From the NCBI GenBank assembly GCA_965263035.1, contig OZ253580.1:4800001-4864000 (forward strand): a stretch of 64,000 nt of DNA. The letters run 5' to 3'. Positions within the stretch are counted from its first letter, which is position 1. Each line of letters begins with the position of its first letter. Below are positions 36,752 through 40,797 of this stretch, piece after piece. Both the position numbers and the translations under genes were made by a program. This stretch comes from Acidobacteriota bacterium. Its GTDB lineage: Bacteria; Acidobacteriota; UBA6911; RPQK01; JAJDTT01. Below the pieces are notes generated by a model. That model saw only the letters and a list, made by a program, of their open reading frames with translations, did not search any database and was not told the DNA's origin.

Positions 36752-38395
36752 ATGCATATTCACCAATCCCGATTCCTGCCGTCCCTCGCCGCATTTGCCC
36801 TGCTCTCCCTGCTGCCTCTCGCTGCGGCGGCCAAGGAGAAGAACGACCGGAAGGATGACGGGCAGGTGCAGGCCGAGGAGTCCCAGGACTACTTCCGAAA
36901 ATGGCTCAACGAGGACGTGATCTACATCATCACCGAAGACGAGAAGGCCGTCTTCGACGGACTCACCAACGAGGCCGAAAAGGAGCAGTTCATCGAGCAG
37001 TTCTGGTATCGGCGGGACCTGGACCTCAGGACCCCCATCAACGAGTTCAAGGAAGAGCACTACCGCCGCATCGCGTATGCCAACGAGCGGTTCCACAGCG
37101 GCAAATCGGGTTGGAGATCGGACCGCGGCCGAATCTACATCATCCACGGGCCGCCTGACGAGATCGAGGACTTCGGCGGGGGTGGCCAATATGTCCGCGA
37201 GTCCTACGAAGGCGGGGGAACCACCACCGTCCACCCCTTCGAACGGTGGCGTTATCGAAAGATCGACGGGCTCGGGAGCGACATCACCCTGGAATTCGTG
37301 GACGAATCCCGCACCGGAGAGTACCGTCTTGCTCTCCATCCCGACGAAAAGGACGCCCTGATCGGCCTGCCCGGGTTGGGGCTGACCGACAGCGAAAGGT
37401 TGGGCCTGACCCAGAAGGGGCGGCGCTTGCATCCCGACGAGATGCACAACCCCTACCTCCGGGCGAACATGCGGCGCCAGGACCATCCCTTCACCCGTTT
37501 CGAGATCTTCGCCAAGACTCAGGCCGCCCGGCCCATCAAGTACAACGACCTCCGGGATCTGGTCAAAGTCACGGTGAACTACACCAATCTCCCGTTCCAG
37601 GTTCGGAGCGACTACTTCAGGTTGAACCAGGACAAGGTACTGATTCCCGTCACCGTGGAGTTGCAGAACCGGGACATGACCTTCAAGCAGAAAGGCGCCT
37701 CCCACTACGCCCAGATCGGCCTCTACGGCGCCGTCACCAGCATGGGAAAGAAGTTCATCCAGGAATTCGATCAGGACATGACCGTGGCCTACCCGGACAG
37801 ATGGATCGAGTTGGGGCGGCAGAGCCGGTCCCTCTACCAGAAGGTGCTGCTGTTGGACAACAACACGCGCTACAAGCTGGACTTGATCGTCAAGGACCTC
37901 AACAGCGACAACGTGGGCGCCGTCAGGCACGCTCTGATACCACCCCCTTCCGTGAAAGAGTCCCAGAAACTGAGCGCCAGCTCCCTGGTTCTTTCCGACC
38001 ACATGCGGGAACTGGAGGAGCTGCCGGAAGGCGACGAGATGTTCGTCTTCGGAGACGTCAAGCTCCGGCCCAGCATCACCCGGAAGTTCACCCGGAAAGT
38101 CCCCCTGGGAATCTACCTGCACCTGTACAACTTCAAGGTGGATCAGACCTCCAACGCTCCCTTGCTGGAGGTCTCCTACCGGATCCGAAACGGGACCGGC
38201 CAACTGGTCAAGGATGTCACCGACAGCGCCGGTGAATCGATCCGGTTCCTTTCCAAAGAAAGAGTCGTCCTGACCAAGAAACTGGACTTGAGCGATCTGG
38301 AACCCGGAACCTATCTGGCCCAGGTCGAGGCCCGGGATTCCTCCAGCGACGAGCGGGTGCAACTGGAGGACCGGTTTCGAGTCGTGGGGAACTGA
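36752..38395 (+). CDS. GWxTD domain protein
   Basis: EEHYRRIAYANERF, GWRSDRGRIYIIHGPPD. Confidence 0.93.
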   Translation: MHIHQSRFLPSLAAFALLSLLPLAAAAKEKNDRKDDGQVQAEESQDYFRKWLNEDVIYIITEDEKAVFDGLTNEAEKEQFIEQFWYRRDLDLRTPINEFKEEHYRRIAYANERFHSGKSGWRSDRGRIYIIHGPPDEIEDFGGGGQYVRESYEGGGTTTVHPFERWRYRKIDGLGSDITLEFVDESRTGEYRLALHPDEKDALIGLPGLGLTDSERLGLTQKGRRLHPDEMHNPYLRANMRRQDHPFTRFEIFAKTQAARPIKYNDLRDLVKVTVNYTNLPFQVRSDYFRLNQDKVLIPVTVELQNRDMTFKQKGASHYAQIGLYGAVTSMGKKFIQEFDQDMTVAYPDRWIELGRQSRSLYQKVLLLDNNTRYKLDLIVKDLNSDNVGAVRHALIPPPSVKESQKLSASSLVLSDHMRELEELPEGDEMFVFGDVKLRPSITRKFTRKVPLGIYLHLYNFKVDQTSNAPLLEVSYRIRNGTGQLVKDVTDSAGESIRFLSKERVVLTKKLDLSDLEPGTYLAQVEARDSSSDERVQLEDRFRVVGN

Positions 38396-38453
38396 CCCGC
38401 CGATCTCCGATGGTCAAATGGGAGTCCGGCGGGTGAAGACTGTCGCTCCCAAT

Positions 38454-38476
38454 CGGCGACAAGAAAGTCGCCGCTC
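38454..38476. repeat. GGCGRCAAGAAAGYCGCC REP-like hairpin family (copies near 6251, 16226, 36029/36066, 38454, 43470, 47480, 49228-49275, 49346)
   Basis: Recurrent imperfect palindrome followed by (G/C)CTCC, mostly at gene 3' ends. Confidence 0.85.
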
Positions 38477-39106
38477 GTGCGCCCGACATGGGCTGTATCT
38501 AAGGGATGAAAGATCCCAAGGGAGGTGATGGGACCAACCCTAGCCGAACCGCAAGGCGTAGCCGCGAGGTGAAGCTGAAGGAAGCGGAAGGCAAACCCAC
38601 GACCGCAGGAACACGAACCGGCAGCGAGGCCGGGTGCGGGCGGTGAGCTGGCGAGCAACAGCGAAACCCGAACCCCATCCAGACGTACCAGGTAGAGCCG
38701 GGCGGCCCGGGGGGAAAGATGCAGCACCTTACTCGGGGAGATCTCAAGGGTGAGAGCCTTTGAGAAGTCAGCAGAGGTCATAGTAGCGAAGAAGCCGGAT
38801 AATGCCGGTGGAGCGAAGGACCGAAGGAGTCGGACTGGCCCTATGGTGGACTCGTCAGCGGGATCGCAACTACCTCCGAAAACGGGCCGTGGGGAGGCCC
38901 CTCGGACCCGGCACGGAAGGCCCAAGGGTGGAACCCGTCAAGCCGGAAGGGCGGAGATCAAGTCCCAGCGGCGGCGAAAACCGGAAAGAAAGGCCCTGTA
39001 CGAGGCTCGAAAGAGCCTCGGGTGACTCCAACCGCCGGATACTGAAAACGGTACGTCCGGTGGTGTGGGAGGGTGCGGGGGCGCAATCCCCTGCACTCGA
39101 CCCGAT
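38477..39106 (+). mobile_element. ORF-less group II intron, class IIC
   Basis: 5' GTGCG; DV ACCGCCGGATACTGAAAACGGTACGTCCGGTGGT with CGC triad; DVI ending ACCCGAT; AGAAGTCAGCAGAGGTCATAGTAG DII/III motif; inserted 4 nt after a hairpin. Confidence 0.92.
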
Positions 39107-39111
39107 CATAG

Positions 39112-40797
39112 TCATTGCAGAGTGAGGAGAGAGAAGGGGAGGGGCGTCGGCTGAAACACGGGATCGTTGTCCCGCCACGGTTGCCGGCAGGCTTCTCTGC
39201 GCTGGTACCGGGTGAGGTTTTCCTGTAGCAGCGTGGCCAGCATGGAGCGTTGGGCCCGGGACACTTCGGTGATCATCATCCTCTGCACCTGGACGGCCCG
39301 ATCGAACAGGCCCAGCTCGGCGTAGACCATGGCCAGCGTCTCCACCTGCTCGAAATCGGGGGTCTTCACTCGTTCGAACACCTTCTGCAGGAGCCGCAGG
39401 GCCTGCTGCCCGTTGCGGATGGCGGCGTCGGGACAGGCCGCCAGCAGGCGAGCCATAGCGTGGGCCAGATCGGTGTCGTCGGGCAGAGCCGTCAGGCCCG
39501 CTTCCAACCGCGACCGGGCCTCCTTCCATCTCTGGGTCCTCACCAGGGCCATGGCGCCCATGAAGTGGGCGAAGGCATTGCCGGGGTCCAGCTCGATGAC
39601 CCTGCCGTAGTGCGGGATCGCCTCGTCGACGAGTTCCCGGCGCATCAGCAGGTTGGCCAACTGGAAATGGGCTTCGGTGAAGTTGGGATCCGTTTCGATC
39701 GCTTGGCGGCAGTGCTCCAGGGCCTGTTCCTCACGACCTATCTGGATCAGTCCCATGGACAGGTTCAGATGGATCCGGGACTTGGAGGCGGTATGAGGCA
39801 GGGCGGCCTCGAATTGCTGGACGGCCTCCTCCACGCGGCCCATCTGCGCCAGGGCCGTGCCCAGGTCCACGAGGGCGAGGGCGTCGTTGGGATCCTGGGA
39901 AACCATCTCGCGAAAGATCCGCACGGCCTCCTCGTGTTGTCCGGAGTCCAGTAGACGGTTGGCCTGCTCGCGCTGCCGCCAGCGTCCCGTCTTCACTCTC
40001 AGCAGTTCTTTCAGCAGAGGATCGGGATAGTTCACGGCGCCGTCCCCCTGCTTGCCCAGATGCAGCCGTGCCTTGTCCACCTGTCTCAACTGGCGGTAGG
40101 CCATGGCCAGCCGGTAGTGGAGGCTGCTGGCCTGAGGCTGGCGCCGAAGAGCCTCCTCGTAGTGTTCAACGGCCTTCGCGTAGTCGCGTCCGGCGGCCGC
40201 GATTTCGCCGAGACCCGCCATCGCGGCCGCGGATTCAGGGTCAAGCTTCAGCGCCTGCTGGAAATGTTCCGCTGCCTCCTCCGTCCGGCCCTGCTCCAAC
40301 TCGATCCGGGCCAGGCCCAGCACCGCCGCCAGGTCGTTGGGGCGCAGGGTCAGGACGTGCGCGTACTGGGCGCCGGCCCGTTCCAGGTCTCCTCTTGCCC
40401 GATAGCCGAGAGCCAGGTAGTAGGACCAGCGGTAATCTCGGGGCGCCAGCCGCAGGGCGTTCCGATAACAGGACTCGGACGCATCCAGGAGGTCGTAGGT
40501 CTGAAGCATCTGGCCCATTTGGCCGTAAGCCCGGGCCCGCTGCTCCGGGTCGGCCCCGGGGCGCCGGATCATTTGCTCCAGGTCGACCCGGGCGCGCTCC
40601 AGTTGCTCCCGCACGTTCGCGTCCATGGCGCTCAGGTTGGGGAAGGGAATCGGCTCCAGTTCGGAACCTGTGGCCTGGGCTGGCGGTGGTTCTGCCGGGG
40701 GCGCTTCCGGGGCAGCGGTCAGACGACCTTGGAAAAGGACGGACAGCGCCACCATGGTGATCAAAACCAGCCGCCGTGCCGCCGACCTTCGTTCCAT
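39112..40797 (-). CDS. Secreted TPR protein
   Basis: Signal plus many TPRs; ARLLAACPDAAIRNG C-terminal motif. Confidence 0.9.
   Translation of the reverse strand: MERRSAARRLVLITMVALSVLFQGRLTAAPEAPPAEPPPAQATGSELEPIPFPNLSAMDANVREQLERARVDLEQMIRRPGADPEQRARAYGQMGQMLQTYDLLDASESCYRNALRLAPRDYRWSYYLALGYRARGDLERAGAQYAHVLTLRPNDLAAVLGLARIELEQGRTEEAAEHFQQALKLDPESAAAMAGLGEIAAAGRDYAKAVEHYEEALRRQPQASSLHYRLAMAYRQLRQVDKARLHLGKQGDGAVNYPDPLLKELLRVKTGRWRQREQANRLLDSGQHEEAVRIFREMVSQDPNDALALVDLGTALAQMGRVEEAVQQFEAALPHTASKSRIHLNLSMGLIQIGREEQALEHCRQAIETDPNFTEAHFQLANLLMRRELVDEAIPHYGRVIELDPGNAFAHFMGAMALVRTQRWKEARSRLEAGLTALPDDTDLAHAMARLLAACPDAAIRNGQQALRLLQKVFERVKTPDFEQVETLAMVYAELGLFDRAVQVQRMMITEVSRAQRSMLATLLQENLTRYQRREACRQPWRDNDPVFQPTPLPFSLLTLQ

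Follow-up and report, generated by a model that had tools for sequence, protein, structure and literature searches.

Is a group II intron that lacks a gene for its own protein a decayed fragment, or is it a ribozyme that is mobilised in trans by a protein made elsewhere in the genome? This question is raised by a 630-nt element at positions 38477-39106 (+) of the window, the 64,000-nt stretch of Acidobacteriota DNA analyzed here (contig OZ253580.1, positions 4,800,001-4,864,000), for which the original prediction, made from the letters of the window, had favored a non-autonomous ribozyme. The present analysis supports that proposal: the element is very probably a group II intron of class C (IIC) and non-autonomous, a retroelement that consists of the ribozyme alone and would be mobilised in trans. 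It is one of many copies, the pairings of its domain I (DI) are kept, and a related reverse transcriptase (RT) is encoded in the same genome. Coordinates refer to the window unless genome coordinates are specified. The window's own genome, a single contig of 6.198 Mb, is termed G000, and the comparison set consisted of 40 related genomes.

Identity and Anatomy of the Element

The element begins with GTGCG at 38477-38481, as originally read, and ends in GAT at 39106. When the Rfam covariance models were applied, two of them scored above their gathering scores inside the element, namely RF02001 (D1D4-3; 81.4 bits at 38558-38725) and RF01998 (D1D4-1; 47.2 bits at 38728-38821). A permissive scan placed RF00029, the model for domains V and VI (DV and DVI), at 39030-39106 with 38.9 bits (E 6e-6). 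The alignment to RF00029 agrees with the DV and DVI assigned originally, and in it the triad CGC at 39033-39035 is aligned to AGC of the consensus. A six-domain fold was obtained as the RNAalifold consensus of 22 short copies of the element, which are described below. The features by which group II introns are recognized are therefore present: a GUGYG start, an AY end, six domains, and a DV accompanied by a DVI with a bulged A. This adenosine, A39100, lies 7 nt from the 3' end and is the candidate branch point. The predicted domains are as follows.

38482-38737 (+), domain I (RNAalifold, alignment columns 7-262)
38738-38769 (+), domain II (RNAalifold, alignment columns 263-294)
38776-38822 (+), domain III (DIII; RNAalifold, columns 301-347; RF01998 covers 38728-38821)
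38826-39029 (+), domain IV (DIV), without an open reading frame (ORF), ~204 nt (RNAalifold, columns 351-600; segment identities)
39001-39020 (+), 8-bp stem CGAGGCUC/GAGCCUCG with GAAA loop, ORF-deletion scar (comparison with 1848-nt relatives)
39031-39064 (+), domain V, triad CGC at 39033-39035 (RF00029 alignment)
39066-39104 (+), domain VI (RF00029 alignment, RNAalifold)

Domain IV is made up of a variable 5' part, a block at ~38917-39006 that is conserved with the ORF-bearing form of the intron, and the terminal cap. No RT ORF is present in the element, as had been claimed: the TIGR04416 profile matched eight places in the genome, none of which is here, and the + strand ORFs within the element are of 46, 91, and 107 aa. 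Replacement of AGC by CGC in the DV triad is a mark of bacterial class C. Given this triad, the small size of the ribozyme (~420 nt outside DIV), and the best match of the intron-encoded protein (IEP) of the relatives described below to IIC RTs, the family is assigned on sequence grounds to bacterial class C.

One further Rfam match in DIV, to the Methylosinus-1 RNA (13.4 bits, E 1.6), was taken as chance. The DIII segment at 38781-38823 (intron positions 305-346) also occurs at 85-90% identity at many places in genomes G009, G011, and G012 of the sister genus. A 40-nt segment of DIII is very deep in metagenome contigs, and other intron families appear to share it.

Copies in the Genome and Conservation of the Fold

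BLAST analysis of G000 yielded 30 pieces, which were resolved into 19 intact copies, 3 interrupted copies, 2 ORF-bearing copies, and 1 fragment of 51 nt. The intact copies are 630-632 nt long and 95.6-100% identical to the window copy, so that the predicted 630-nt element recurs 19 times as a unit. In total, 22 short copies are found at 22 different sites, and the element is clearly not single. The short form outnumbers its ORF-bearing partner by ~11 to 1 (22 of 24 copies lack the ORF). The copies include one identical set of five and one identical set of two, and the alignment of all 22 contains 17 distinct rows.

Within the consensus derived from these copies (17 of the 22 sequences being distinct), 98.9% of the 3230 pair cells hold standard pairs, which does not accord with the broken DI pairings that would have told against the proposal. 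When partners were slid by 1-3 columns, only 34-45% of cells remained paired. Pairs changed on both sides numbered 7, compared with 1.7 ± 1.1 in shuffled alignments, none of 500 reaching 7. In DV, 14 of 14 pairs were invariant in the 17 distinct sequences, and the five pairs of DVI that vary do so on one side only and all stay paired.

Three copies are interrupted. The same 1.78-kb insertion sequence, which encodes a 342-aa rve/HTH_21 transposase, breaks the copies at genome coordinates 3067627-3070027 (+) and 3923178-3925592 (-), where it is found in opposite orientations and at different intron positions (~264/276 and 345/350). In the copy at 5180457-5185638 (+) (L058), positions 121-264 are replaced by 4.7 kb of DNA that includes the gene for a 694-aa large serine recombinase (Resolvase + Recombinase + Zn_ribbon_recom).

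ORF-bearing Relatives and Loss of the Reverse Transcriptase Gene

The two ORF-bearing copies in G000 are each 1848 nt long, and in them intron positions 1-528 and 540-630 are split by ~1.2 kb. Of their 1848 positions, 6 differ between the two copies, and all 6 lie outside the ORF, a 1230-nt IEP gene that specifies an identical, uninterrupted 410-aa protein in both copies. The ATG of this gene lies just past the end of the similarity to the short form, and its stop codon lies 81 nt before the 3' end of the intron. The protein contains RVT_1 (64-272) and GIIM (285-359) domains (RT + X) and nothing further, includes a YADD motif, and scores 363 bits on TIGR04416 (cut-off 300). Comparison with solved structures gave 449 bits for the GsI-IIC RT, 343 for 7uim (a group II intron RT/maturase), 124 for LtrA, and 110 for 6me0. 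An exact look-up in a protein collection found no match, probably because gene callers chose an upstream start; a homologue search returned a 100%-identical match of 461 aa and 8000 ordinary group II RT/maturases. A related RT, on whose existence the original proposal depended, is thus represented by two intact cognate RT/maturase genes, carried by introns whose DI-DIII regions are 98.6% identical to those of the short copies.

Comparison of the two forms indicates how the gene was lost. In the long form, a DIV stem CGAG.../...CUCG closes the loop that holds the ORF, with the start codon paired with the last codons. In the short form, 11 nt replace everything between, to give the perfect stem CGAGGCUC-GAAA-GAGCCUCG; the 8-bp stem and GAAA loop noticed originally at 39001-39020 therefore stand in the same place as the ORF of the full-length relatives. 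The junction GCTCGAAAGAG is identical in 19 of 19 intact G000 copies, which implies that all descend from one ORF-less ancestor. The short form keeps some 190 nt of DIV on the 5' side of the place where the start codon used to be. Here, a segment of 82-84 nt is 68% identical between short and long forms, and the next 90 nt are 87-88% identical; this conserved block (~38917-39006) is proposed to be the region bound by the IEP.

A second, unrelated group II intron family of ~2.0 kb is also present in G000, with three intact copies and one split copy. The IEP of this family shares 34% identity with that of class C, and the intron RNA is matched by RF02003 D1D4-4 (92.6 bits). The copies are listed in genome coordinates.

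5536884-5538888, second-family copy (L059)
983769-984869, second-family copy
5842098-5843198, second-family copy
5053504-5056830, second-family split copy, RT broken by ~2.2 kb

Target Site and Its Recognition

A GC-rich hairpin and then GCTC stand before the intron at all 24 loci (22 short and 2 ORF-bearing copies), and the junction is always exactly GCTC followed by GTGCG. In the window, this hairpin resembles a repetitive extragenic palindromic (REP) element, and the GCTC would serve as intron-binding site 1 (IBS1), paired with exon-binding site 1 (EBS1) in domain I. The features of the target are as follows.

38454-38476 (+), REP-like target: 7-bp stem CGGCGAC/GTCGCCG, loop AAGAAA, then CTC (fold, genome census)
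38473-38476 (+), IBS1 GCTC, last 4 nt of the 5' exon (at all 24 loci; covaries with EBS1)
38653-38656 (+), EBS1 GAGC in the 8-nt loop GCGAGCAA, closed by GCUG/CAGC (RF02001, RNAalifold)
39107 (+), candidate IBS3, the first 3'-exon base C (C at 23 of 24 loci)

The upstream 30 nt have a minimum free energy of -12 kcal/mol or lower at 21 of 24 loci, a value reached at 6.4% of 1000 random sites at which GCTC is followed by C. Given that the stem arms fall into six sequence classes, it is the shape of the hairpin, and not the sequence of its stem, that is the common feature. The six stem-arm sequences at -10 to -4 also disfavor a sequence-specific IBS2, no formal EBS2 search having been made. A C at the candidate IBS3 is not independent evidence for that contact, since 219 of 232 empty REPs have C at this position as well.

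Most frequent among the hairpins is CGGCGRC-AAGAAA-GYCGCCG with CTC directly after it. The 23-nt core at 38454-38476 is found in 251 genome copies within 4 mismatches, and as the hairpin is a genuine repeat family, the name REP hairpin under which it was first described is a fair one. A neighbor lies within 60 nt of 120 of the 251 REPs, 48 spacings are exactly 28 nt, and tandem arrays are often formed. Introns occupy 19 of the 251, all ending in GCTC, and the other five of the 24 loci fall outside this family. Among the 232 empty REPs, 130 end in GCTC and 46 in CCTC. It had also been claimed that the intron sits 4 nt after the hairpin. The adjacency stands but the distance does not, because the stem pairs 38454-38460 with 38467-38473 and the intron follows 3 nt after the last paired base (38473). 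The first base of IBS1 is therefore also the last base of the 7-bp stem.

The proposed pairing of EBS1 GAGC, in the GCUG...CAGC loop at 38653-38656, with GCTC at 38473-38476 was examined across species. A GAGC/GCTC pairing was observed in 26 copies (24 in G000 and 2 in G004) and a GAGG/CCTC pairing in 8 copies (1 in G001, 6 in G003, and 1 in G008); none of the 34 readable copies was discordant. Four more G008 copies with CCTC exons end at contig edges before the EBS1 loop. This compensatory change falls exactly at the predicted position and lends qualitative support to the assignment.

Terminators of co-oriented genes were considered as the target and rejected. A co-oriented gene was found upstream at only ~13 of 24 loci, according to a crude GC3-based ORF call, and the target is therefore described as a hairpin or REP rather than as a terminator.

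A REP is frequently preceded by a second type of hairpin (GGGGGGACT...GTCCCCCC), which is itself an intron target in sister species. REP elements in general are associated with a gene for a REP-associated tyrosine transposase (RAYT; a Y1 transposase) that is flanked by REPs. Two weak matches to Y1_Tnp (PF01797) were found in G000, one of 36 bits at 2482924-2483100 (-) (L061) and one of 39 bits at 3478135-3478365 (+) (L060), in genome coordinates. The former has REPs ~0.8 kb away, on one side only, and is possibly a RAYT-like gene.

Empty Sites and Replication Bias

The intergenic region orthologous to that of the window was intron-free in five of the five sister genomes examined (G001, G003, G004, G005, and G008). 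In G003, the site is uninterrupted: GTCGCCGCTC, preceded by a REP, is followed directly by CATAGTCA. Across the junction this site reads gtcgccgctc and then catagtcactgcag, and the bases after the junction, CATAGTCACTGCAG, are those of the window's 3' flank. Given this uninterrupted target, both boundaries of the 630-nt element as first delimited are exact and no target-site duplication is present. The 630 nt are thus an insertion in the G000 lineage, and one that left no target duplication, as expected for reverse splicing.

The intron lies between convergent genes, with a further hairpin on its upstream side.

36752-38395 (+), GWxTD-domain protein gene (GWxTD_dom), upstream of the intron (ORF list, Pfam)
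38396-38433 (+), strong hairpin CCCGCCG...CGGCGGG directly after the GWxTD stop codon (fold)
39112-40797 (-), TPR-repeat protein gene, downstream of the intron (ORF list, Pfam)

The fold of 38396-38476 has a free energy of -37.6 kcal/mol (z -3.87). The hairpin at 38396-38433 is separate from the REP and outside the intron target, and may be the GWxTD gene's own terminator.

The dnaA gene (2,871,758-2,873,065) lies at the minimum of the cumulative GC skew (2,873,574), and the origin was placed there. Introns are co-directional with the replication fork at 19 of 24 loci, compared with 83 of 232 empty REPs (Fisher p = 4.9e-5), although a skew plateau defines the terminus poorly, which leaves doubt about three or four assignments near 5.6-0.1 Mb. 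Empty REPs run mostly against the fork (149 of 232). For the REP family alone, the corresponding values are 16 of 19 introns and 50 of 128 empty sites at which GCTC is followed by C (p = 3e-4). The sense strand of a co-directional intron is the lagging-strand template, and a bias of the same direction has been reported for class C introns (PMC8919778). The strand bias fits priming at the fork by an RT that lacks an endonuclease.

History across the Genus

Short full-length copies were also found in G001 (648 nt), G003 (657 nt), and G008 (650 nt), and ORF-bearing copies in G003 (five) and G004 (one); segment identities were computed without G004_F. The short copy of G003 retains the ATG and four codons more, joined to the last codons. 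Since its identity to the long copies of the same genome is 98.8-100% throughout all segments, this copy represents a recent and separate loss of the ORF. The deletion junction of G008 differs from those of both G003 and G000. By contrast, the junction of G001 is that of G000, 18 nt longer, and the G001 copy is placed in the G000 lineage because both share a divergent DIV segment (88-90% identity). On the evidence of these junctions, the ORF was lost at least three times in the genus (at least three deletions in four species).

Segment identities also suggest a more complicated relationship between the two forms. Short and long copies of G000 are 98.6% identical in DI-DIII and 98.9% at the 3' end, but 68% in the 5' variable segment of DIV, whereas the short copies of G000 and G001 are 94.7% identical in DI-DIII, 92.3% at the 3' end, and 88-90% in the 5' variable segment of DIV. 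Since one divergence time cannot give differences of 1.4% and 32% in adjoining segments, short and long forms are likely to have exchanged segments within a genome, and such exchange would have kept EBS1 the same in both. G001, a complete genome, contains one short copy and no cognate IEP (best identity, 36%), which suggests that the short form depends on a helper IEP.

Evidence against Mobilisation and Alternative Explanations

Several observations weigh against the proposed explanation. The RF00029 score lies 1.1 bits under the gathering score of 40. The consensus structure was built from the same alignment that was used for pair counting, so that the paired percentage is inflated; the double changes are less affected. 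The covariation of EBS1 and IBS1 represents one or two evolutionary events and not 34. The most diverged copy, at genome coordinates 2488950-2489581, has a GTACG start, an eroded hairpin, and T at +1, and looks dead. G003 possesses five cognate IEP genes and only one short copy, and a helper IEP alone therefore does not guarantee amplification. The crude call of a co-oriented upstream gene at only ~13 of 24 copies bears on how many copies may be transcribed in sense.

Public sequencing runs, which were examined as assembled contigs in which depth cannot show transcription, add to these reservations. The depth of the intron relative to its flanks in RNA libraries X14 and X15 was about that of ~24 DNA copies. 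A contig from RNA library X18 joins 38476 to 39107 and skips exactly 630 nt (GT..AT), but this contig has a depth of 2.6 and extends only 29 nt into the REP side. Given that the intron contig of the same run carries the GAGG variant, this joint is ambiguous and may be the empty site of a relative rather than ligated exons. Splicing, IEP binding, and mobility are therefore inferred.

Depth over the intron was dropped as evidence either way, being in the range expected from DNA copies. The DIII segment is common to other intron families, and these account for a depth peak at 38758-38851. In addition, a contig from run X8 with a depth of 10.7 skips 33 nt (38982 to 39016) and represents either a shorter DIV variant of another strain or an assembly artefact.

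The alternative that survives best is that the copies are dead relics of one past amplification and neither splice nor move today. Such an account would be in keeping with RNA-library contigs in which expression and splicing are not demonstrated, with three copies broken by other mobile elements and one that is visibly decaying, and with the general loss of retromobility described for bacterial introns without IEPs (PMC4424553). It is less easily reconciled with the set of five identical copies at different sites and the additional identical pair, with an invariant DV and helices that vary while keeping their pairing, with cognate IEP genes that are both intact and identical, or with the absence of the insertion at the window site from all five sister genomes. 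Taken together, these observations make it unlikely that the copies are relics.

A second alternative is that some other protein, either the second-family RT/maturase or a host factor, mobilises the short copies or only splices them. G000 does contain three other group II RT genes that are intact, a short copy persists in G001 although the second type is the only RT present there, and "driver" IEPs with relaxed specificity are known in Thermosynechococcus elongatus (PMC2882425). However, the second IEP is only 34% identical to that of class C and belongs to an intron RNA of a different Rfam type (RF02003 D1D4-4), whereas, against the ORF-bearing copies of class C, the short copies are 98.6% identical in DI-DIII and 98.9% at the 3' end; moreover, G001, with the second type only, holds a single copy. 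The involvement of such a protein is considered quite improbable.

Spread of the copies as passengers of REPs, through REP-copying machinery or recombination between REP arrays rather than reverse splicing, would accommodate the 19 of 24 loci in one REP family, the REP found just downstream of some copies as well (e.g. 311840, 2272572, and 3923178), and the Y1 transposase-like gene 0.8 kb from REPs, but it is most improbable given upstream hairpins of six sequence classes with five loci outside the 251-copy family, unique sequence directly downstream of most copies including that of the window, a junction that never varies and an EBS1 that changes with the target between species, and an intron orientation biased with replication where empty REPs tend to the opposite.

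Discussion

The data are best accommodated by a class C ribozyme that has lost its gene and is mobilised in trans. A plausible course of events is that an ancestor lost the RT/maturase gene from DIV and that the gap was trimmed to the 8-bp GAAA-capped stem, the 5' part of DIV upstream of the former start codon being kept. The intron RNA would be transcribed by read-through from neighboring genes, and the 410-aa RT/maturase of the two full-length relatives would bind and splice it. The resulting ribonucleoprotein would then enter single-stranded DNA by reverse splicing, immediately 3' to a GC-rich hairpin, the target being read through the shape of the hairpin and the pairing of EBS1 GAGC with IBS1 GCTC, and probably through the IBS3 C too. 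Because the IEP is without an endonuclease domain, cDNA synthesis would take its primer from the replication fork, with the lagging strand as the side of the template. The REP-like repeat of ~250 copies, as the commonest hairpin, would provide many harmless landing sites. What is inferred in this scheme is the action of the IEP in trans, its binding to the conserved DIV block, continued splicing and movement of the copies, and the mode of priming.

It may further be proposed that the genus holds a bacterial counterpart of the short and long interspersed nuclear elements (SINE/LINE), derived from class C introns through repeated births, persistence across species and stepwise trimming to a capped stem in one lineage, swaps of its DI-DIII and DV-DVI modules, EBS1 included, with the resident autonomous intron, and an expansion to 11 times the copy number of its partner based on REPs instead of terminators. 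This broader interpretation is tentative, and the chance that it holds is judged to be a little short of even.

Bacterial introns that lack an ORF are described as almost always accompanied by a related intron that encodes an IEP, and as having mostly lost their mobility (PMC4424553, PMC3245105). In T. elongatus, one ORF deletion is common to 17 of 28 introns, and experiments demonstrated their mobilisation by driver IEPs (PMC2882425). The TeI3/TeI4 introns of that organism resemble the present family in having a single DIV deletion with remnants of the ORF ends kept; for TeI3, the ORF-less form likewise outnumbers the ORF-bearing one (17 of 28 there, 22 of 24 here) and depends on the IEPs of related introns in the same genome (PMC2882425), a dependence that would apply here also. 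The TeI3/TeI4h introns differ in that they belong to another class, have an IEP with DNA-binding and endonuclease domains, and form families with different EBS sequences (PMC2882425). By contrast, the introns described here are of class C, have an endonuclease-less IEP, use a target of a hairpin plus 4 nt, and are concentrated on a REP-like repeat, with an ORF that was lost on at least three separate occasions within one genus. Mobilisation in trans is an experimental result in T. elongatus, whereas here it is proposed from sequence.

Class C introns insert after terminator hairpins, and one of their lineages inserts into attC sites (PMC12584367, PMC8919778, PMC3001079). These IIC-attC introns of integrons are similar to the present family in that a IIC lineage has come to use, in place of terminators, a class of structured DNA sites that are repeated, but their targets are the attC recombination sites of gene cassettes and they keep the ORF, whereas the target here is REP-like and the intron ORF-less (PMC3001079). 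B.h.I1 and GsI-IIC share with the present introns the CGC triad, the small ribozyme, an IEP of RT + X composition, insertion a few bases after a stem-loop, a short IBS1, and a lagging-strand bias (PMC8919778, PMC12584367). They are ORF-bearing and use the terminators of co-oriented genes, whereas the form amplified here is without an ORF (PMC8919778, PMC12584367). In addition, the hairpins used here belong mostly to a repeated extragenic family and have no following run of T.

The group II intron of Pseudomonas putida KT2440, which we take to be ORF-bearing, is also found at REPs. In that genome, 2 of 9 copies are REP-associated (Tobes and Pareja, 2006; PMC1525189). Pseudomonas REPs are thus similar to those described here in being landing sites for mobile DNA, but a minority of the P. 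putida copies is involved (PMC1525189), whereas in G000 a single REP family accounts for 19 of the 24 loci and a hairpin precedes the intron at every locus. The literature searched contained no amplified ORF-less class C intron and no REP-centered one, supplementary genome lists being outside the reach of the search.

The one well-studied exception in which ORF-less introns are amplified concerns introns of another class, in a thermophilic cyanobacterium. In the present case, the dominant form is a class C intron that lacks a gene of its own, and the rule by which it finds its target is simple and fully readable. The family also provides a case of natural retargeting, in which one base change in EBS1 is matched by one base of the target. 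The 630-nt IIC ribozyme, which is presumably recognized by a GsI-IIC-like RT, may be of interest to those who engineer group II introns and RTs. Related genomes show different stages of the process: fresh ORF loss in G003, an orphan without a helper in G001, and a burst in G000. In summary, the family represents a compact natural system in which it may be seen how non-autonomous retroelements arise, how they keep using a helper RT, and what limits their spread.

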